Below the pieces are notes generated by a model. It was given only the letters and a program-made list of their open reading frames with translations. It was not told where the DNA came from and ran no database searches. From the NCBI GenBank assembly GCA_049586635.1, contig JBAVCK010000126.1, positions 1-49,785 of the forward strand: a stretch of 49,785 nucleotides of DNA. The letters run 5' to 3'. Made by a program: the position numbers and the translations under genes. The first letter of the stretch is position 1, and every line of letters begins with the position of its first letter. Positions 2,723-42,292 of the stretch are shown piece after piece. The stretch comes from Candidatus Bathyarchaeia archaeon (GTDB taxonomy: Archaea > Thermoproteota > Bathyarchaeia > 40CM-2-53-6).

Positions 2723-3856
2723 CTAGGAGGATAGCTTGGGGAGGCTGTCCAGTGTCGAAAGCACGTCTCCGACGCGTCCCAAGCCTGAAATCAAACGTTC
2801 CCGCTCACAGCCGTAGCCTATTCGCAAATAATGGTCCATTCCGAACTGGTCACCAGGCACTACCAAAGTGCTCTTCTCCTGCAAGAGTCGCTCAGCGAGC
2901 CGGGTCGAGTTGATTTTAAGGAAATACTTCAAGTACGCGATAGCTCCGGCCTTGGGCGGAATGAATGACAAGTAATCGTGATGTTTGTCAACCCAACTCG
3001 TTAGAATTGGTAGATTCGAACGGAGTATCTCTCGCGTTCGCCCTAGGATCTTTGCTCGCATTTCGGGTTGCAAGGCCTTCCTTGCGATGTAATCGCTCAA
3101 AGCGCTCGGACCGATGGTTGTATAGTCATGGTAAGACCAGAGTTTAGTTGCTAACTCTTTGCTCGTCAATGCCCAGCCAACCCTGAGTCCTGGTAGGCCG
3201 TAGGCCTTCGACAACCCGTTAGTTACTATGATCTTATCGTACTTACCCCAGAATGTTGGAGTCTCCGACCCAGATAGTTCAGCGCCATGATACACCTCGT
3301 CGGAGAGGATCCACGCACCAGCCTGTTTCGCGACTTCGCAAATACCTTCAACCGCCTCCTCATCGAGAACCGCGCCAGTCGGATTGTTTGGGTTGCATAT
3401 GGCGATGAGCTTTGTCCTCTTTCTCACGATTTTTCTTAGAGCGCTTAGATTTGCTGCCCATTGACCTGCCTCCTCCCTGAGCCAGAACGGCTTGACCTTG
3501 GCTTGCATCGTTTTGGCCAAGCCCCAGACTTGCATGTAGTTTGGTAGCATCACAACAACTTCAGCGCCTCGCTTCAGGAAAGACCAGAGGCAGACGAAGA
3601 TTGCCTCAGAGCTACCATTTGTCACCAACAAGTTATCGGCCGATGCTTTCGAGTATATGGCCGCGATTGTCTTTCTCAGTTCCTCGGTTCCATTTGTTTG
3701 ACTGTATCCTAGGGATTGGGTGAGTATAACGGACGCGTCGCCGTCAAGCAACTCGTGGAGCTTGAGCGGTTCCACGCCGCTCTCTGACAGATTGTATTCG
3801 ACTTGGTGCTCCCATGTAGATTGCCAACGCTCCAATTCAAAAGGCTGAAGCTTCAT
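2723..3856 (-). CDS. PLP-dependent aminotransferase, class I/II
   Basis: The ORF runs to 3922, but the conserved N-terminus MKLQPFELERWQ...YNLSESGV begins at the ATG at 3856. SKAYGLPGLRVGW carries the PLP-lysine motif, and NPNNPTG is present. Confidence 0.8.
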   Translation of the reverse strand: MKLQPFELERWQSTWEHQVEYNLSESGVEPLKLHELLDGDASVILTQSLGYSQTNGTEELRKTIAAIYSKASADNLLVTNGSSEAIFVCLWSFLKRGAEVVVMLPNYMQVWGLAKTMQAKVKPFWLREEAGQWAANLSALRKIVRKRTKLIAICNPNNPTGAVLDEEAVEGICEVAKQAGAWILSDEVYHGAELSGSETPTFWGKYDKIIVTNGLSKAYGLPGLRVGWALTSKELATKLWSYHDYTTIGPSALSDYIARKALQPEMRAKILGRTREILRSNLPILTSWVDKHHDYLSFIPPKAGAIAYLKYFLKINSTRLAERLLQEKSTLVVPGDQFGMDHYLRIGYGCERERLISGLGRVGDVLSTLDSLPKLSS

Positions 3857-3921
3857 AACTTCCAACGAGCCTATGGCCCACGAGGCCCGATAACAACCTT
3901 TCCAGAGATGTAGAATCGACA

Positions 3922-4584
3922 ATGATGGAAGGCTCCCCGATAGCGGCGTCGCTCGAACATGCCGTTTACTATCCTACCCAGAAAGCCGAGCGATATGCAG
4001 CTGTTGTCGCATTGCATGGTCGTGGAACCGACGAGTACGATTTGATACCACTCGTGAGTTCGCTTGGTTTGACTGACGTTCTTGTTATTTCTCCACGTGC
4101 ACCGCGACCATTCCAGTTTGGTGGAGGATTCGCTTGGTACGACGTAAGCCAGGAGGGAGTGCCACATGCTCAGACGTTCGTTTCGAGCCTCGACATTTTA
4201 CGTCGGTTCATAGACGAGATCAGGGCGGGTTACCCTGTGAACCCTGAACGGGTCATGCTCCTAGGTTTCAGTCAGGGAACTATCATGGCCTATGCCGTAT
4301 CGTTAATGGACCCAGCTTCGTTTCTCGGAATCGCCGCCTTGAGCGGTTACATCCCGCAACGCTCCGGCTTGTCACTCACCCTAGAAAATCTCGGCAGCTT
4401 TTCCGCCTTCGTCTCCCACGGAACATACGACCAAATCATACCCGTACGCCTAGCCCGTGAATCCGCGGAGCTGCTGAAGAAGGCCGGAGCCCGCGTAGAC
4501 TATCGAGAGTATCCAATGGGGCACGAGGTTAGCGAAGAAACGGTTCGAGACCTGTCCGCTTGGGCCAAGAACCTATTGCAATAA
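3922..4584 (+). CDS. phospholipase/carboxylesterase-family alpha/beta hydrolase
   Basis: 220 aa with a GFSQGT nucleophile elbow (GxSxG), ALHGRG near the N-terminus, and a C-terminal His (MGHEV). Confidence 0.8.
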   Translation: MMEGSPIAASLEHAVYYPTQKAERYAAVVALHGRGTDEYDLIPLVSSLGLTDVLVISPRAPRPFQFGGGFAWYDVSQEGVPHAQTFVSSLDILRRFIDEIRAGYPVNPERVMLLGFSQGTIMAYAVSLMDPASFLGIAALSGYIPQRSGLSLTLENLGSFSAFVSHGTYDQIIPVRLARESAELLKKAGARVDYREYPMGHEVSEETVRDLSAWAKNLLQ

Positions 4585-5273
4585 GACCCCATGGCTTGAC
4601 TCATGAAGGGCGAAGTTTAATTCAACTTGATGTGGGGATAGCAGTGCGGGTAGGAGTATTGGGCACTAAGCCGCTGCAACCTCGAGAGGTAGCGCTCACA
4701 GCCGTGATGACGGCTGCGACAGCGGCCGTTACTATGGTCATCAGCATACCTTTCCCGCCCACTCGTGGTTACTTCAACCTAGGTGATGCGATGGTCATGC
4801 TCGCAGGCTTGCTATTCGGCGCAAGGCTCGGTGGTATTGCGGGTGGCGTTGGCTCGGCAATCTCTGACATTCTCTTGGGCTATGCGTACTTCTCGCCGTT
4901 AACACTCTTCATCAAAGGGACTGAAGGTTTCCTAACTGGCCTAATCGGAAACAATAGGAGACTTCCTCTCAAGGTGGCTGGTGTGGTGGCGGGCGCAATT
5001 GCGATGTTGCTTGGCTACTTTTCTGTGGAAACCCCGTTGTACGGAGTTGGCGCCGCTTTTGCGGAACTCGTAACCATAAACTCTCTTCAGGTCTTGTCGG
5101 GAGCAGTGGTATCACTGCTGTTGTGCCAAGCTATACTGAAAGCCTACCCGGACATCAAATTCCTCCAACCGAGGCATGAAGGCCTCCGGGTGGGTGTCAT
5201 AATGGTGATCGTGGCTACGCTGGTCCTAGCTGGGATCGTCGGAGTCTACTTATTGACGGGTATTTCGCCTTGA
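4560..5273 (+). CDS. ECF-transporter S-component-like integral membrane protein
   Basis: Polytopic. The NLGDAMVMLAGLLFG...GGVGSAISDIL and IKGTEGFLTGL motifs resemble ECF substrate-capture components. The true start is probably downstream, because the listed start overlaps the previous gene by 25 nt. Confidence 0.55.
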   Translation: MGQEPIAIRPHGLTHEGRSLIQLDVGIAVRVGVLGTKPLQPREVALTAVMTAATAAVTMVISIPFPPTRGYFNLGDAMVMLAGLLFGARLGGIAGGVGSAISDILLGYAYFSPLTLFIKGTEGFLTGLIGNNRRLPLKVAGVVAGAIAMLLGYFSVETPLYGVGAAFAELVTINSLQVLSGAVVSLLLCQAILKAYPDIKFLQPRHEGLRVGVIMVIVATLVLAGIVGVYLLTGISP

Positions 5274-34385: not shown

Positions 34386-34889
34386 GCACAGACGAGCGCC
34401 TTCAAGTCTTCGCGAACTCTTTTCTTTGAGTTCGTATTGCAAATAACCTCTCATTCTTCTTATCCTACTACGACAGCGTAGAACGATTCAGTTACCATCG
34501 AGTCAAGTAATGCCCTAACAAGGCTACATTTTGCCGGACTTCATCGGGATTGACGTCTCGTTGCGCAGGTCCCACAATTACAACAAGGGACCACGTTAGC
34601 ATCTCGAAAAAGCACGTGAAATCTATTCTACACAAACATGCGGTGTCATAGACCTTGACCTTCCTGTGAGACTGGCGGCTGCAGCTACGTGACCAGACCG
34701 GTGAGTGTGAGTTTAAGCGTGTGCAATAATTCGTGGGTAATGTACAGGATTCTTCGAGGGTTCAACTGTTCGCGCGGGCTTATGCTGTTCGACACCTAAT
34801 GGCTTATGTTTTGGGTAAGTTGTTTCTCTCTTTTTAAGGGGTTCAAATCATATTATTTGATATGAAATGAACAAAGAGTGTGAAGTAAT

Positions 34890-35129
34890 TTGAGCACTTT
34901 TCTTAGAAAGCATATTGTTGCAAGGTATTGTGTTGGACTGACTTTTGTTACTTGTCTATCCGTGCTTGTTGTGTACGCAGTTCATGGATGGACGTGGAAT
35001 TCACAATTTGCAGGAGGAAGAATTACGTTGACTCTGCCTGAGTTTGTAATTACTATCGTCCTACTCACACTGGTTGCTGGCATATGTATTGACATGTGGA
35101 GAAGCCGGAATCCAACCAAACGAAAGTAA
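34890..35129 (+). CDS. small two-TM hypothetical protein
   Basis: 79-aa ORF in an AT-richer, gene-poor stretch. It has two hydrophobic helices. No family recognised. Confidence 0.35.
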   Translation: MSTFLRKHIVARYCVGLTFVTCLSVLVVYAVHGWTWNSQFAGGRITLTLPEFVITIVLLTLVAGICIDMWRSRNPTKRK

Positions 35130-35264
35130 ACAGCCCCAAGCACCAAACGACAATGACGCGTTACCCAGAACCAAAATCCCGAAAATTAGACACCTAGTGA
35201 CATAAACCATTAGACGCCTAAACCCATATGTCACAGCCGAATTTTTACACAGGCTTAGTTTAGC

Positions 35265-35790: not shown

Positions 35791-36576
35791 ATGGTCAGAA
35801 AATGCCCAGCATGCGGCTACAACAACCGCGACGACGCAGCATTCTGCTCAAGCTGTGGCTCATCACTCGCAGGCGCAGCAGGACCCACACTCAAACCAGT
35901 CCCTTCAGTCCGAGTTGTAACACCTGTCAGCCCTGGCAACCCGATCAGGGTTCCAGCACCTGGCCAATGTTACTATCACCCTAGCCTACCCGCCGTCTAT
36001 GTTTGCAACCGTTGTGGAAGAGCGATCTGCCGCGACGACTCGAAGGCATACATGGACCTTGTACTCTGTCCGCAATGTTACCAAGGCGTTGTACCGATGG
36101 TAGCAGCTCCACAACAGCAAATGCCATCGATGCAAATGCCACCTTATCAACCGATGCCAGGACCCGCCTACGGTCCACCCCCAATGGCAGCGCCGGCTCC
36201 CTTCATGGGACCATTGCCCCCGCTTTACCAACCTGCTCCCCCGAGAGCTCTCTGGGGCTTCATACTAGCAATGATCGCAGGCATACTTGTGATACTTAAC
36301 GCAGCAGCTTTGCTTTCACCGAGTTTCTACACTCTATGGACAGGCATCTTCTTCTGGTTGCCAGCTGTCGGCCCGGCAAGTCTAACGTTCGCTATAGGAG
36401 CGATAATCGGGCTCATACTGGTAATCGGATCAATACTAATGCTACTAGGATACGGAACCATAGGCAGCATAGTTGTCTTTCCACTTGCTGTCTTGAGCTT
36501 GCTGATCGGCGGTGGCTTCGTGGCCGGATTCGTTCTGGGCGTGCTGGGTGGAATACTCGGCATGCTAGGACGCTAG
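35791..36576 (+). CDS. membrane-anchored zinc-finger protein: RanBP2/NZF-like zinc ribbon + B-box-2-like finger + Pro/Met-rich linker + 3-4 TM helices (candidate E3/adaptor)
   Basis: CPACGYNNRDDAAFCSSCG matches C-x2-C-x3-N-x6-C-x2-C. CYYHPSLPAVYVCNRCGRAICRDD...CPQC matches C-x2-H-x8-C-x2-C-x4-C-x2-D-x9-C-x2-C. The linker is QQQMPSMQMPPYQPMPGPAYGPPPMAAPAPFMGPLPPLYQPAPP. The C-terminal half is hydrophobic and Gly-rich. Confidence 0.75.
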   Translation: MVRKCPACGYNNRDDAAFCSSCGSSLAGAAGPTLKPVPSVRVVTPVSPGNPIRVPAPGQCYYHPSLPAVYVCNRCGRAICRDDSKAYMDLVLCPQCYQGVVPMVAAPQQQMPSMQMPPYQPMPGPAYGPPPMAAPAPFMGPLPPLYQPAPPRALWGFILAMIAGILVILNAAALLSPSFYTLWTGIFFWLPAVGPASLTFAIGAIIGLILVIGSILMLLGYGTIGSIVVFPLAVLSLLIGGGFVAGFVLGVLGGILGMLGR

Positions 36577-36631: not shown

Positions 36632-37774
36632 TTGTCCTACGTGAGCATAGCGAAGCCCGTTAACGATAAAATAGTCCGGGCTGCGCGCACGACTAAGAAT
36701 GAAATAATCGGCGTACTGATAGGACGGTTTCAGGACAATACCATAATAATCGAAGACTCGGTCACCGGTGAATCCGCCGCCGAGCCGCACCGAGCAATCC
36801 TCTCATCGAAAGCGTTGGCGGAGATTGCGGACGGAATTGTGACCGGCCGGATAAAGGGCAATATTGTCGGCTGGTACCACTCACACACCCACGGCGGGCT
36901 CTTCTTCTCGCAAACAGACATCGCAACCCAATCAATACTCCAACAGTTTTCAACACTCATTTCTGGAATGGTCGTGGACGCCTCGACCGGCGATGTGGGC
37001 TTCTTTCGCGTGGAGCCTTCGAGTGGGCAAGCCGTCCGCATATCTGCTGAAAGAATCACAGTCTTCACCGTGCGGTCGGCGGCGGTTCGGCCCGAGGCAA
37101 GAGCGGAGCCCCCTGCTGCGATACCAACGGTCGAAGTGAAGCAGTCTAATTCCCGGATACGCATACTTGGAATCTTCGGAGCCGTTGGTCCTATTGTCTA
37201 TATCGCCGCCGTCTTGATTGGCGGTTTCTTATGGCCTGGGTACTCACACTATAGCCAGACAGTGAGCACGCTCATCTCATCGCGTGCTCCTAACCAAGTC
37301 ATAATGGTGCCTCTTTTCGCCTTCTACAATGTTTGCTTGATCCTTCTGGCGGTTGGTCTATACTATGGAATCCAGAAAGAAGTCAGACACATTTGGGGTT
37401 CGGCGTTCCTAGTCGCCGCAGGCGCTGGGGGCCTGGTTCTCTTTCTTTTCCCGCAAGATTATACCGCCGGTCCTCCGTTCGCTGTATTGGACTTGCTGCA
37501 CTTGGTCATCACAGGAATTATTGCATTCTTCTCGCTTGCAGCGATTGCTCTCTTTTGGCTACAATTCCGTCTCGACCCACGTTGGAAAGGCTACGACCGT
37601 TTCAGTATCGTAATGCTACCAATCGCGCTTACCCTAGGTGTCCTCGGCCTCATCTCGATTTCCGCCCCATACGCAGGCCTTGCCGATAGATTGTCCATTG
37701 GATCATTACTGTTATGGATTGAGGTCGCTTCAACTGGACTCATCATTCGTGGTTCAAAGGGTTCCGCACCGTAG
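36632..37774 (+). CDS. JAMM/MPN+ (Rpn11-like) metalloisopeptidase fused to a polytopic DUF998-like membrane domain
   Basis: Has the catalytic Glu context KNEIIGVLIG and an exact JAMM motif HSHTHGGLFFSQTD (H-x-H-x7-S-x2-D, nt 36878-36919). The C-terminal about 200 aa hold about 6 TM helices and the PGYSHYSQTVSTL signature of DUF998. TTG start (GTG at 36641 is an alternative). Confidence 0.85.
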   Translation: MSYVSIAKPVNDKIVRAARTTKNEIIGVLIGRFQDNTIIIEDSVTGESAAEPHRAILSSKALAEIADGIVTGRIKGNIVGWYHSHTHGGLFFSQTDIATQSILQQFSTLISGMVVDASTGDVGFFRVEPSSGQAVRISAERITVFTVRSAAVRPEARAEPPAAIPTVEVKQSNSRIRILGIFGAVGPIVYIAAVLIGGFLWPGYSHYSQTVSTLISSRAPNQVIMVPLFAFYNVCLILLAVGLYYGIQKEVRHIWGSAFLVAAGAGGLVLFLFPQDYTAGPPFAVLDLLHLVITGIIAFFSLAAIALFWLQFRLDPRWKGYDRFSIVMLPIALTLGVLGLISISAPYAGLADRLSIGSLLLWIEVASTGLIIRGSKGSAP

Positions 37775-37787
37775 CTGGCTGAATAGA

Positions 37788-37976
37788 ATGAATAAGGAGG
37801 CCACGACGTTAGACGAAGGCTCCGGAACAGAAGGTTACCACATCGGCCTCCCAGGCTCACAATGCATACCATGCACCCAACAAGAGCCACCCGGGGCGGG
37901 GACCTTGCCTTCACGCACCATCCGATTCATAGCAAGACAGTTTAAGCTCATCTGCGAAAATGAAGGCCCAGCATGA
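37788..37976 (+). CDS. possible 62-aa ORF translationally coupled to the Ubl gene
   Basis: The ATG at 37788 comes 14 nt after the JAMM stop. Its TGA stop overlaps the ATG at 37973 (ATGA). The sequence MNKEATTLDEGSGTEGYHIGLPGSQCIPCTQQEPPGAGTLPSRTIRFIARQFKLICENEGPA has no recognisable family. Confidence 0.25.
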   Translation: MNKEATTLDEGSGTEGYHIGLPGSQCIPCTQQEPPGAGTLPSRTIRFIARQFKLICENEGPA

Positions 37977-38239
37977 GTGGAGGTGAAACACGACAAATGA
38001 AACTGTTCGTCCAAGCGCCCATCGGCCCCCAGACTGGCCTAGCGGAAATCGATGTAATTCCAGACCATACTGTTGCGGAAATAAAGCAACAGGTCTGCCA
38101 ATCGTTCAACGTTGACCCGAGCACCGTGGCTCTCATGTATGGAGGCGCGATATTAGACGAGGGTACCACCGTTGCAAGATTAGGCATCCCTGAAAATGCT
38201 CAGCTTGCGCTCATGCCATACAACATCATCGGCGGGTAG
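37973..38239 (+). CDS. ubiquitin-like beta-grasp protein ending in Gly-Gly-stop
   Basis: MKLFVQAP...DHTVAEIKQQVCQSFNVDPSTVALMYGGAILDEGTTVARLGIPENAQLALMPYNIIGG-stop follows the ubiquitin pattern (MQIFVK..., L.F.G..L.D..TL). The likely true start is the ATG at 37997 (80 aa), which has GGAGGTGA 10 nt upstream. The GG codons are at 38231-38236. Confidence 0.85.
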   Translation: MSGGETRQMKLFVQAPIGPQTGLAEIDVIPDHTVAEIKQQVCQSFNVDPSTVALMYGGAILDEGTTVARLGIPENAQLALMPYNIIGG

Positions 38240-38250
38240 GCTAGCTAGAT

Positions 38251-38844
38251 TTGGATGTCTCGTTGCTGCTGAAGGAAAAGAGCCTGCTCAACCATCAGTT
38301 CCCTACAGTCACTGCAATCGACGACCCACCCACTCAATTCGAAGGCCTCATTCGCTGCGAGAAAGGGGAAGTCATGAAGCTGTCCGAGAAGGGAGTCTGG
38401 CCCTTCACTGATTACACGAACTGGCACCGCTTCAGACTTGATATTCCCCCAGAATACCCGTTAAAGCCACCAGTGGCTACCTGGCTCACGGAAATCTCCC
38501 ATCCAAACATAGTCCCGAAAATACCGAACGCCGTATGCGTTTCAATACTCGGAGAAAAATGGGACCCTAGGCTGAAACTCGTATCTGTCGTCAACGCGTT
38601 ACATTACCTTCTGACCGATCCAAACCCTCAGAGTGTTTTTGATAACCCCCGGGCGCTCAAAGCAGCAGACGTTTGTCGTTCGTACGGATTTCCCAAGATG
38701 ACGAAAGCTAGGCCAACGAATAAGGAAGCCGACGATATTGTCCGCTTCAACGTAGTCCCTGTTCCCGAATTAGCCAAATCTTCAGGCGCAGATGACATAG
38801 TTAGGTTCGATATCCCTGGACGGGTACGCCGAGCGTCTTCTTGA
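38251..38844 (+). CDS. ubiquitin-conjugating enzyme (UBC-fold E2) with C-terminal repeat tail
   Basis: FRLDIPPEYPLKPPVATWLTEISHPNIVPKIPNAVCVSILGEKWDP carries YP.kPP, an HPN triad (38500-38508), the catalytic Cys (38536-38538) and a downstream W.P. TTG start 11 nt after the Ubl stop. The tail has two ADDIVRF[ND] copies. Confidence 0.85.
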   Translation: MDVSLLLKEKSLLNHQFPTVTAIDDPPTQFEGLIRCEKGEVMKLSEKGVWPFTDYTNWHRFRLDIPPEYPLKPPVATWLTEISHPNIVPKIPNAVCVSILGEKWDPRLKLVSVVNALHYLLTDPNPQSVFDNPRALKAADVCRSYGFPKMTKARPTNKEADDIVRFNVVPVPELAKSSGADDIVRFDIPGRVRRASS

Positions 38845-40208: not shown

Positions 40209-40643
40209 ATGCTTGATGCCAATGGATGTCGGGATTTCAGCATGTCAATGTGTCCGGCTTGCGGCTCACCCAACTCTGGGGATGCAAAGTACTGTTTCAA
40301 ATGCGGTGCGATGGTTTCCCGTGGACCACCTGTGAAGGTTGAAGTGCGATCGCCCTTAACTCCCTCCATGAAACCAACTCCGGTTGCTCCAATCGCTCCG
40401 TCAACGTACGTTTCGAGACAAGGCCAAAGACAGGGAAGCTGCTACTATCACTCTGAGCTCCCATCATCGTTCATATGTTCAAGATGCGGCAGGTCGATTT
40501 GCGCAGCCTGTAACAGGCAATACGGGGTTCTAAGCCTGTGCACAGAATGTTACTGGGGATTAGCCCCCAAACTAGGCGCTCCACTCGGACAATATGCGGT
40601 TGCGAGTGAGCAGCAGGCCCGTTCCCCGTTTTCGCTCTTTTAG
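40209..40643 (+). CDS. soluble zinc-finger protein: RanBP2/NZF-like zinc ribbon + B-box-2-like cross-brace finger (candidate E3)
   Basis: CPACGSPNSGDAKYCFKCG matches C-x2-C-x3-N-x6-C-x2-C. CYYHSELPSSFICSRCGRSICAACNRQYGVLSLCTECY matches C-x2-H-x8-C-x2-C-x4-C-x2-C-x9-C-x2-C (8 ligands). It is a paralogue of the N-terminal half of 35791-36576. The true start is probably the MSMC Met (about 40242). Confidence 0.75.
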   Translation: MLDANGCRDFSMSMCPACGSPNSGDAKYCFKCGAMVSRGPPVKVEVRSPLTPSMKPTPVAPIAPSTYVSRQGQRQGSCYYHSELPSSFICSRCGRSICAACNRQYGVLSLCTECYWGLAPKLGAPLGQYAVASEQQARSPFSLF

Positions 40644-42292
40644 GTTAGGCGCCCCTGATTCTTCAGCCGCTCCGTTATTTCCTTGAGTTCGCCCACAGGA
40701 ATTCCGAGATCCGATGAAGCCTTGCTTAAGGATATGACACCTTCATGTTTCACGATGTAATCGTATACTTTTTCGTCCGATGAAGCCGCTGGCATTTCCA
40801 ACGGCGCGCCGCACTTTTCACAAAATGCTCCTTTCGGCACAAGATTCCCACACGTACTGCAAGCCTGCGTTGCAGCTACGAGTGTGGGTGAGCCTCCAGG
40901 TGGGTGGAATTTTTGCGCTTCGCGATTGAAAATACCCCGCCTATACGCGAGGACGATTCCAACGCTAAGAATGGTTGCTAGTCCTCCACCTCCTAGAATT
41001 GCGACCAGTGGAAAGTAGTCAAAGCTCCACTGGGCTTCAACAATATATGGCCTGTCGACGGTCAGATTCCATGAATCACCAGTTCTCTGGAGTACCCCCG
41101 TTGGTGGGTCGAGCCGCAAACCGGTGAGAGCGTATGTTATCGGCCAACTTTGTTCGCCTGCTACAACAGTAATCTTCGCGGACGCCCCGCGGTCGTACCA
41201 TCCCGAACCGGAAACTGAACCATGCGAAGAACGGACGTCCACGTAGTACTGTGTATTGTACGACAGGGTGACTGTACGCGGTTGATCCATCACCACCGTG
41301 TACGATGGGGTCGGGAAAGATGATCCGTTGTCAACCCAACCAACGAAACGAAGGCGTTCGACGGAACTCAAATCGAGGGTCAAGGGAGCCGGCCCAAGTT
41401 GAACGTTTGCGTTAGCACTATACCAGCCCGCATCCGATTCATTGTATTTGGTTGAAATGGTAGCGGGATCATACTGAACGGCAAGTAGGTATTGGGCAAG
41501 GAAATTGGCCTTAACTGTATGCGGCCTGTCCATCACTATGTGGCCAGTCAGCGACTGACCCGTGTAATCGCCGCTCCAGTGATCAAACTTCAGCCGCGTA
41601 TTGCCAGTTGCCGTGACAATCGCATTTACTGAGAAAGTAGCCGGACTCCCTGAATCATACCACACAGAACCGGCAAGACTCGAGACGTTGGGTGGGTCCG
41701 ATTCAACCGTCAAGAAAAACTGTGTCTTCCAGTTCGCTATGGCACTTTTTGCTCCGGTCATCAGGATGCTATTCGAACTCGTATCGGTGCCAGAGGCATC
41801 TCCTGACCACCCAGCAAATACTTGCCGCGTCCCCTGGCCTTCGTCAATCTGACGATCTTGAACAGTTGCCTGTGCTGAGGCACCGGAGTTGTACCATCCC
41901 TGGCCGGTCGGAGTACTGTAGGACGACTGTACAGTAAGATAGTACTGCGCCGTGTAGGTGAAAACGTGGTTGCCTGACGCGCTGAAACCCCATGATGCTT
42001 CTTGCTCATAGTATCGGGTGCCGTTTGCACCGATGCTGCTTGGGATGTAGGAGTCTACCGTAATCACATGGCCTATGTTTGAAGTTGCGAAACTGAATGA
42101 GCTTGTCTGGCCACCGACCATCGTCGTATTGAATGACCCGTCGACGTAGACATTTGTGCTAATTGTGGTGGGGAGGCCAGCGATTGTTATTGAAACCGCG
42201 TAAGTTGCCTGCGCACGAGCAGTTGGAATGAAAAGGCCAGCGATGACTATGCAGATGAGCAGCGTCAAAAGTGGCCGCGCTGAGATGGGCAA
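40640..42292 (-). CDS. single-pass membrane protein: extracellular repeated beta-domains, cytoplasmic zinc ribbon + winged-helix domain
   Basis: Has a signal peptide and four or more repeats of Q(Y/F)(Y/F)L.V.S...G.GWY..G(A/S)... (InlB-B-repeat-like). These are followed by a TM helix (VAILGGGGLATILSVGIVLAY), CSTCGNLVPKGAFCEKCG, and then EKVYDYIVKHEGVISLSKASSDLGIPVGELKEITERLKNQGRL (wHTH). Confidence 0.65.
   Translation of the reverse strand: MPISARPLLTLLICIVIAGLFIPTARAQATYAVSITIAGLPTTISTNVYVDGSFNTTMVGGQTSSFSFATSNIGHVITVDSYIPSSIGANGTRYYEQEASWGFSASGNHVFTYTAQYYLTVQSSYSTPTGQGWYNSGASAQATVQDRQIDEGQGTRQVFAGWSGDASGTDTSSNSILMTGAKSAIANWKTQFFLTVESDPPNVSSLAGSVWYDSGSPATFSVNAIVTATGNTRLKFDHWSGDYTGQSLTGHIVMDRPHTVKANFLAQYLLAVQYDPATISTKYNESDAGWYSANANVQLGPAPLTLDLSSVERLRFVGWVDNGSSFPTPSYTVVMDQPRTVTLSYNTQYYVDVRSSHGSVSGSGWYDRGASAKITVVAGEQSWPITYALTGLRLDPPTGVLQRTGDSWNLTVDRPYIVEAQWSFDYFPLVAILGGGGLATILSVGIVLAYRRGIFNREAQKFHPPGGSPTLVAATQACSTCGNLVPKGAFCEKCGAPLEMPAASSDEKVYDYIVKHEGVISLSKASSDLGIPVGELKEITERLKNQGRLT

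Follow-up and report, generated by a model that had tools for sequence, protein, structure and literature searches.

A JAMM isopeptidase domain fused to a DUF998 membrane domain in a Bathyarchaeia ubiquitin operon: a probable membrane-anchored deubiquitylase

The DNA analyzed here (the window) is a stretch of 49,785 nucleotides (nt) from Candidatus Bathyarchaeia archaeon (contig JBAVCK010000126.1, assembly GCA_049586635.1). At positions 36632-37774, its forward strand encodes a protein that combines an Rpn11-like JAMM (MPN+) domain with a polytopic membrane domain of the DUF998 family. The gene occupies the second position in a cluster of genes on the same strand, which encode a zinc-binding transmembrane (TM) protein, the JAMM-DUF998 protein, ubiquitin, an E2, an E1 with a ubiquitin-like (Ubl) domain, and a soluble zinc protein. 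The fusion proved to be real and conserved, and its product is probably a membrane-anchored deubiquitylase acting at the inner face of the membrane. The features of the gene are listed below (aa, amino acids; pLDDT, predicted local distance difference test; K+R, lysine plus arginine).

36632..37774, + strand: JAMM-DUF998 fusion gene; 380 aa, TTG start, TAG stop; homologs of the same architecture
36632..37081, + strand: MPN+/JAMM catalytic domain (aa 1-150), predicted to be cytoplasmic; from Pfam JAB and Prok-JAB, AlphaFold2 fold, Foldseek, and phmmer
36701..36703, + strand: codon of the catalytic Glu24, inside NEIIG; invariant in alignment A4
36878..36919, + strand: JAMM zinc-binding/catalytic motif HSHTHGGLFFSQTD (H83, H85, S93, D96)
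37082..37153, + strand: flexible Pro/Ala-rich linker (aa 151-174), ending with juxtamembrane PTVEVK and basic residues; from pLDDT and motif sharing
37154..37750, + strand: predicted DUF998 (Frag1/DRAM/Sfk1-clan) six-helix membrane domain (aa 175-373); from Pfam, hydropathy, AlphaFold2, and K+R bias

The open reading frame (ORF) comprises 380 codons with zero internal stops. Its TTG start is backed by a GGTG motif 8 nt upstream as well as by homologs that have ATG at the same position and begin with MSYVSI. An initial annotation of this DNA had described the JAMM part as continuing without interruption into the membrane part, and the two indeed form one conserved ORF. It had also proposed to look for this architecture elsewhere. 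About 20 clusters that combine JAB and DUF998 emerged from a search of 5.8 billion proteins; they range from 96% to 40% identity and stem from ENA, JGI, NCBI, and Logan assemblies, with contigs including ones of 0.25, 0.70, and 2.36 Mb. Among the species representatives of GTDB, the full-length fusion was present in four Bathyarchaeia species (L009, 95%; L010, 77%; L011, 61%; L012, 60%), which are metagenome-assembled genomes (MAGs) from Danish soil and SPRUCE peat.

A chimera, or a missed stop or frameshift, joining a soluble JAMM gene to a neighboring DUF998 gene is effectively refuted as the origin of the fusion. Free-standing DUF998 genes do occur in Bathyarchaeia (P0036), and the near-identical L002 is the sole locus with separate calls for JAB (165 aa) and DUF998 (212 aa). 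However, when compared with the window and L001, the L002 split is due to a 1-nt deletion in a T-run, located within the JAMM domain (column 408 of alignment A1) and away from the domain junction. Genes for acyl-CoA dehydrogenase, a Zn-ribbon protein, and E1 on the same contig are likewise split, and we therefore regard the separate calls as assembly or sequencing noise rather than as natural. The interval 37100-37160, for which the initial annotation had asked that a frameshift or assembly join be excluded, gave no sign of either. GC content was uniform along the gene, and alignment of the window DNA with an independent 2.36-Mb contig was free of insertions and deletions (indels) over the gene. 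Moreover, the fused ORF recurred at 40-96% identity across many samples and assemblers, including contigs of 0.2-2.4 Mb; the linker is conserved, and the neighborhood of P0036 is unrelated.

The N-terminal part of the protein matched JAB (PF01398; aa 4-106, 42.6 bits, cutoff 22.5) and Prok-JAB (PF14464; 37.1 bits, cutoff 25). Among NCBIfam models, only that of haloarchaeal desampylase matched the fusion protein, weakly and below threshold. All elements of the MPN+/JAMM signature E-x(n)-H-[ST]-H-x7-S-x2-D were found: KNEIIG at 36695-36712 contains the glutamate quoted previously as part of NEIIG (E24), and HSHTHGGLFFSQTD is an exact H-x-H-x7-S-x2-D. Residues E24, H83, S84, H85, S93, and D96 were invariant across the family in alignment A4. 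The closest sequence in the PDB was the Rpn11 homolog of Caldiarchaeum, CsRpn11 (phmmer against 6FJV, E = 1.4e-12). In an AlphaFold2 model of the fusion, built on 30 homologs and with a mean pLDDT of 80, aa 1-150 adopt the alpha/beta fold of an MPN domain; they are followed by a linker that is predicted to be disordered (pLDDT <50 at aa 153-172) and then by six long helices. According to Foldseek, the modeled MPN fold is most similar to the CsRpn11:ubiquitin complexes 6FNN/6FNO (TM-score 0.82, root-mean-square deviation 2.3-2.5 Å), with Rpn11, CSN5, and BRCC36 next; target TM-scores against CsRpn11, Rpn11, and CSN5 were 0.7-0.82, each with a Foldseek probability of 1.00. The earlier description of a canonical MPN+ domain thus holds, but not its length of about 170 aa, as the fold ends near aa 150 and aa 153-172 form the disordered linker. 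We infer that the domain is a zinc-dependent isopeptidase for ubiquitin or Ubl substrates. No second MPN gene was seen within the operon. Incorporation into a proteasome lid would be unlikely, because the enzyme is predicted to be membrane-integrated.

The C-terminal part is covered nearly end to end by the DUF998 profile (PF06197; aa 185-366, profile positions 2-181 of 184, 74.4 bits, cutoff 30, E = 1.2e-20). The DUF998-typical motif pointed out in the initial annotation was recovered as PGYSHYSQTVSTL in loop 1, the most conserved motif of the family. Kyte-Doolittle analysis yielded six hydrophobic segments (aa 178-196, 223-241, 254-272, 291-309, 325-343, and 354-372) and none within aa 1-160. 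In the AlphaFold2 model, helices are predicted at aa 172-200, 222-246, 255-270, 283-314, 321-344, and 348-375, mostly with pLDDT >90. Both results agree with the suggestion of about six hydrophobic helices and predict a membrane-embedded C-terminal part. Six helices are also what is described for the Frag1/DRAM/Sfk1-like clan of six-helix bundles to which DUF998 belongs (PMC13370385; 10.1101/2023.03.09.531927), a clan implicated in lipid homeostasis (same two sources). The only studied member of the family, the Enterococcus faecalis DUF998 protein DrmA, alters the levels of aminoacylated (lysyl-)glycolipid, as judged from genetic evidence (PMC13370385). No solved Frag1/DUF998 structure was among the PDB matches listed by Foldseek.

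Whether the JAMM domain faces the cytoplasm was assessed from the charge distribution in 14 fusion members. The segments preceding TM helix 1 and following TM helix 6, together with loops 2 and 4, contain 125 K+R, compared with 28 in loops 1, 3, and 5. Since positive charges are concentrated on the segments of the JAMM side, an N-in/C-in topology with a cytoplasmic JAMM domain is predicted. Conservation of DUF998 is highest in the predicted outward loops, i.e. loop 1 (0.75, PGYSxYxxTVSxL) and loop 5 (0.83, PYAGLAER), and lower in the inward loops (0.44-0.63). The hallmark motifs are kept in the fused domain as well as in free-standing DUF998 proteins.

All elements of the initial annotation that could be checked held up. 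It treated the fusion as an isolated oddity, but nearly all Bathyarchaeia orthologs have a membrane anchor, in the form of a single TM helix plus an ectodomain. Most JAMM homologs (about 75 clusters in the search of 5.8 billion proteins, and more in a scan of cluster representatives) are 490-540 aa long, with JAMM domains 55-65% identical to that of the window. This sister architecture consists of JAMM, a linker ending with PTPTVEVRRR, a single TM helix, and some 300 beta-rich residues without Pfam assignment, and it occupies the same operon slot (L007). The linker motif PTVEV[KR] is common to both architectures. For 93 ectodomain-type proteins, K+R amounted to 4.2 in the 15 residues before the TM helix and 1.0 after it, and N-x-S/T sequons were five-fold more frequent on its C-terminal side (1.77 vs. 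0.36 per 100 aa). These asymmetries around the TM helix suggest that the JAMM domain is cytoplasmic and the ectodomain extracellular and probably glycosylated. A single TM helix at aa 170-210 was found in all of the 17 or so other Bathyarchaeia species representatives. Farther out in the family, PKD repeats or coiled coils occur, or the TM helix only. A relative from Helarchaeota is tail-anchored, and two from Heimdallarchaeota showed no convincing TM helix (in one of them, L032, hydropathy has a single weak peak, which lies within the JAMM domain). With nearly all Bathyarchaeia orthologs predicted to be anchored, a membrane tether is the norm in this JAMM lineage, whose C-terminal modules include DUF998 among several others. 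When 1.84 billion cluster representatives were scanned exhaustively with HMMER, the two domains occurred together only in two clusters, those of this Bathyarchaeia clade. Genes of the Bathyarchaeia JAMM-TM-ectodomain type were also observed in three bacterial soil MAGs (L015, L020, and L023, with the GTDB titles Acidiferrales, Methylomirabilota, and Acidoferrum), probably reflecting bin contamination rather than horizontal transfer.

In a neighbor-joining tree of JAMM domains (80 taxa, 60 bootstraps), the DUF998 fusions formed one clade (80% bootstrap) nested within the radiation of the ectodomain type, which indicates that the DUF998 form is derived. The fusion has persisted while the JAMM domains diverged to about 70% identity. 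Because the junction directly follows PTVEV[KR], helix 1 of DUF998 would replace the single TM helix, and DUF998 thus appears to have taken the place of TM helix and ectodomain in a derived subclade. Free-standing Bathyarchaeota DUF998 proteins are 55% identical to the window's domain and lie in unrelated neighborhoods (P0036/L008); genes of this kind are plausible donors. A second, distant DUF998 lineage sits on the same JAMM clade. P0024 and P0015 have JAMM domains that are 84% identical but membrane parts with only 23% identity, both scoring above the DUF998 threshold, whereas other fusion pairs show about 70% identity for JAMM and about 55% for the membrane part. The presence of two DUF998 lineages on one JAMM clade points to module exchange or a second capture. 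A 434-aa metagenomic protein with two matched stretches (P0128) was considered as a third JAMM-DUF998 lineage but rejected, as it is a DUF998-DUF998 tandem with 12 predicted TM helices and without JAMM. Given this tandem, members of the DUF998 family may act as dimers or pseudo-dimers.

These comparisons bear on a serious rival explanation, in which DUF998 has no function of its own, is kept for stable insertion, and merely localizes the deubiquitylase. Orthologs that use a single TM helix with variable ectodomains (Ig-like, PKD, or coiled coil), a TM helix only (forms of about 226 aa), or, in a Helarchaeota relative, a tail anchor speak for it, and it is the very diversity of these anchors that makes membrane residence the conserved feature. 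Yet the fused DUF998 retains the hallmark motifs as well as free-standing ones do, and a second distant DUF998 lineage on near-identical JAMM domains would be unexpected if any hydrophobic segment sufficed; it argues that DUF998 specifically was favored. We consider a passive anchor possible, though less likely than our main reading, in which DUF998 may have a role beyond anchoring.

The C-terminal ends of the fusion proteins vary. Longer fusions (P0015-P0019, P0022, and P0023; e.g. L003 7140-7260) have tails of 40-50 aa that differ from each other by apparent frameshifts. The window protein ends earlier by a TAG stop (CAG in L001), and an out-of-frame, tail-like '...RTIRFIAR' is found in the intergenic region 37775-37972. 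We also considered the tails (P0015-P0019, ...NPAVLAGG...IVR) as a remnant of the C-terminus of the replaced ectodomain. BLASTP alignments with the last 55 or so ectodomain residues were collinear (E = 0.004-0.5 in a tiny database), but hhalign aligned 11 columns with a probability of 6%, and a hidden Markov model applied to three-frame translations gave nothing significant; the proposal is no more than suggestive. The recurring C-terminal 'I-V/A-R-stop' of ectodomain-type and short JAMM genes is explained by its being encoded in a conserved block of about 45 nt before the ubiquitin gene.

The other genes of the cluster and its immediate surroundings are as follows.

35791..36576, + strand: protein with Zn-ribbon, B-box/RING-like Cys/His module, Pro/Gln-rich linker, and C-terminal helical membrane domain (Zn-TM protein)
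37929..37972, + strand: conserved block 5′ of the ubiquitin gene, with TTTAAG at 37941-37946; from alignment A3 across DUF998-type and ectodomain-type loci
37973..38239, + strand: ubiquitin-family protein, 88 aa, ending with IIGG-stop; Pfam ubiquitin, E = 2.5e-10
38251..38844, + strand: E2 (UQ_con) with HPN...C active-site region; Pfam UQ_con, 61.9 bits
38841..40085, + strand: E1 with N-terminal Ubl and ThiF adenylation domain; ThiF 176 bits, ubiquitin 25.2 bits, and NCBIfam relatives
40209..40643, + strand: soluble Zn-ribbon and B-box-like protein, paralog of the 35791..36576 product; from Pfam
40640..42292, - strand: 550-aa membrane protein with signal/TM, InlB-B-repeat-like ectodomain, TM helix, cytoplasmic Zn ribbon, and HTH (helix-turn-helix)-like tail

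The cluster is a Caldiarchaeum-type operon on the chromosome, with a ubiquitin ending in GG, a ThiF E1, and a UBC-type E2 with HPN...C, all above the Pfam cutoffs. The order of its genes recurs in L001, L003/L004, L005/L006, and L007, and the flanking genes are housekeeping ones (acyl-CoA dehydrogenase, ribose-5-phosphate isomerase, DHDPS, and Y-family polymerase). The C-terminal extension of the E2 (about 50 aa) contains two copies of DDIVRF (ADDIVRFNVVPVP ... ADDIVRFDIPGR) and is kept in L003 and L007. The N-terminal Ubl domain of the E1 spans aa ∼1-60 and is conserved in related loci. The 45 or so nt before the ubiquitin ATG (37973) are conserved across JAMM architectures (window, L001, L003, L005, and L007). 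This block is likely the ubiquitin promoter; within it, TTTAAG, situated 27-32 nt before the ATG, resembles an archaeal TATA box for a leaderless ubiquitin mRNA. In every locus examined (L001, L003, L004, and L007), the 550-aa membrane protein is encoded convergently beside the operon; it could be a substrate or partner of a membrane ubiquitin system. Upstream of the operon, window positions 34502-35262 and L001 positions 3456-4635 differ by an indel polymorphism. At this site, L001, a genome 95% identical, carries a free-standing LAGLIDADG_3 homing-endonuclease gene, and the window a different segment, which is low in GC, about 760 bp long, and includes a hydrophobic ORF of 79 aa (34890-35129). 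Scans of 33.5-43 kb for tRNAs and Rfam families gave no matches.

The ends of the ubiquitins help to tell deconjugation from maturation, both of which the initial annotation had offered as membrane functions. Ubiquitin ends with GG-stop in the window as well as in L001, L003, and L005, but with GGSC, a 2-aa extension, in L007, the sole ectodomain-type operon examined. Since the operon's own ubiquitin is encoded with a free C-terminal GG, deconjugation is the better reading of how the enzyme would function, and maturation is unlikely. The enzyme could nonetheless be mainly a protease for ubiquitin precursors at an incidental membrane site. CsRpn11 does cleave the precursor of Caldiarchaeum ubiquitin, CsUb (PMC6043591), and the GGSC end in L007 needs trimming. 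However, every DUF998-type locus examined encodes a ubiquitin ending with GG-stop, and yet the active site is intact in these enzymes. We thus regard a main role in maturation as improbable, although trimming of ubiquitin may be part of the job in the ectodomain-type lineage.

The two zinc proteins of the operon are paralogous, the soluble one being 36% identical to the N-terminal half of the upstream Zn-TM protein (BLASTP, E = 4e-24). The Zn-TM protein belongs to a very conserved Bathyarchaeia family with more than 240 homologs. The initial annotation had drawn attention to a TM-anchored zinc-finger protein upstream of the fusion gene; its gene is indeed syntenic in L001, L005, and L007, and it encodes a B-box/RING-like module. 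All ligands of this second zinc module (C-x2-H-x8-C-x2-C-x4-C-x12-C-x2-C) are invariant. Profile matches to the module were all below threshold, with zf-B_box in 21 of 22 members (best E = 1.5e-5) and Prok-RING_1 in 19 of 22, and the profile search gave no RING above threshold in either flanking zinc protein. In the AlphaFold2 model of the upstream protein, the zinc region had a pLDDT of about 45. The two proteins are candidate E3s or adaptors, of which the upstream one would be membrane-anchored.

Together, these findings point to a deubiquitylase of a Caldiarchaeum-type, eukaryote-like ubiquitin system in a Bathyarchaeia archaeon from soil or peat; the enzyme would be built as an integral membrane protein. 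A catalytically intact, Rpn11-like JAMM zinc isopeptidase would be placed in the cytoplasm, with 20-25 or so flexible residues tethering it to the first of the six DUF998 helices. There it would probably strip ubiquitin from proteins whose modification, at or close to the membrane's inner face, is carried out by the E1, E2, and B-box/RING-like proteins of the same operon. DUF998 would provide membrane residence and possibly sensing of lipids or the envelope, or binding of a partner. Several points weigh against this interpretation. The topology is derived from hydropathy and the positive-inside rule, and the arrangement of the two domains in the AlphaFold2 model is unreliable (predicted TM-score, 0.54). 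As the conserved DUF998 motifs face outward, there is no obvious coupling from DUF998 to a cytoplasmic protease, and DUF998 could be a mere anchor. The upstream Zn-TM protein is no obligatory partner, because its gene is missing at that position in L003/L004, and the assignment of the zinc proteins as E3s rests on sub-threshold profile matches, combined with a poor model of the zinc region.

A more specific proposal would be a lipid-linked substrate: DUF998 binds lipid head groups and presents an amide-linked ubiquitin-lipid conjugate to the JAMM domain, similar to the deconjugation of Atg8-PE. The modulation of an aminoacylated glycolipid by DrmA in Enterococcus faecalis (PMC13370385) and the link of the Frag1/DRAM/Sfk1-like clan to lipid homeostasis (PMC13370385; 10.1101/2023.03.09.531927) are compatible with this. 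Nevertheless, conjugates of ubiquitin with lipids are not known from archaea, the conserved loops of DUF998 are predicted to lie across the membrane from the JAMM domain, and the sister architecture has no lipid-handling domain, all of which makes the proposal very improbable. Possibly, the enzymes are instead receptor-like deubiquitylases, in which an outward module (glycosylated ectodomain or outer loops of DUF998) senses envelope, lipids, or environment and controls the cytoplasmic JAMM domain; together with a membrane-anchored B-box/RING-like ligase, this would amount to prokaryotic transmembrane signaling by ubiquitin or to turnover of membrane proteins. Such coupling is conceivable because both alternative C-terminal modules present conserved or variable surfaces outside, but we regard it as speculative and rather unlikely.

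A search of the literature yielded no description of a membrane-anchored archaeal JAMM protein, although absence from the searchable literature is not proof. Database entries carry automated names only ("DUF998 domain-containing protein", "proteasome lid subunit RPN8/RPN11"). The DUF998 form seems to be derived within a far larger and apparently undescribed family of JAMM deubiquitylases with a membrane tether. Eukaryote-like ubiquitin systems of archaea serve as models for the origin of ubiquitin signaling, and the sole characterized one, that of Caldiarchaeum, is wholly soluble. A whole archaeal class with a predicted integral-membrane deubiquitylase, and probably one membrane-bound ligase-like partner, would place ubiquitin at membranes in cells without endomembranes and suggests control of membrane or envelope proteins as an early use of ubiquitin. 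Should the enzymes be receptor-like, they could represent a functional precursor of the eukaryotic control of membrane proteins by ubiquitin. The DUF998 fusion also offers a rare genomic hook that ties the widespread Frag1/DRAM/Sfk1-like six-helix family to a defined enzymatic pathway amenable to in vitro reconstitution.

Deubiquitylation is confined to a membrane surface in eukaryotes as well. AMSH/STAMBP is a peripheral JAMM enzyme that is recruited to endosomes by ESCRT via protein partners, and USP19 and USP30 are TM-anchored cysteine deubiquitylases, i.e. members of another protease class. To our knowledge, none of the three is a JAMM domain fused to a polytopic membrane domain. Described members of the DUF998/DrmA family (PF06197) are stand-alone proteins of about 200 aa, whereas the window's DUF998 is fused to JAMM. 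The Bathyarchaeia JAMM-TM-ectodomain proteins (about 500-520 aa, e.g. P0044/L007) share with the fusion an orthologous JAMM domain, the linker motif, the operon slot, and the predicted cytoplasmic orientation, but where the fusion has its six-helix DUF998, they have a single TM helix followed by a beta ectodomain that is rich in sequons and about 300 aa long.

The best match to the window's JAMM domain in both sequence (E = 1.4e-12) and structure (TM-score 0.82, 28% identity) is CsRpn11 from Candidatus Caldiarchaeum subterraneum (PDB 6FJU/6FJV/6FNN/6FNO; Fuchs et al. 2018), which has the same MPN+ site (E...HxHx7Sx2D). Like the window enzyme, it comes from an archaeal operon that also includes genes for ubiquitin, E1, E2, and a small zinc-finger protein, and is a stand-alone protein rather than a subunit of a proteasome lid. 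CsRpn11 is a soluble protein of 202 aa that matures a CsUb precursor with a 9-aa extension and deconjugates substrates (PMC6043591). The window, in contrast, does not encode a soluble Rpn11 for an extended precursor: its enzyme is predicted to be membrane-integral via DUF998, and its ubiquitin, ending with GG-stop, needs no maturation. A small RING-finger E3 belongs to the Caldiarchaeum type of operon; that of the window encodes B-box-like partners rather than a clear RING. The window system thus differs from the Caldiarchaeum type in three ways, namely (i) a JAMM enzyme predicted to be an integral membrane protein; (ii) a pre-matured ubiquitin; and (iii) B-box-like partners.

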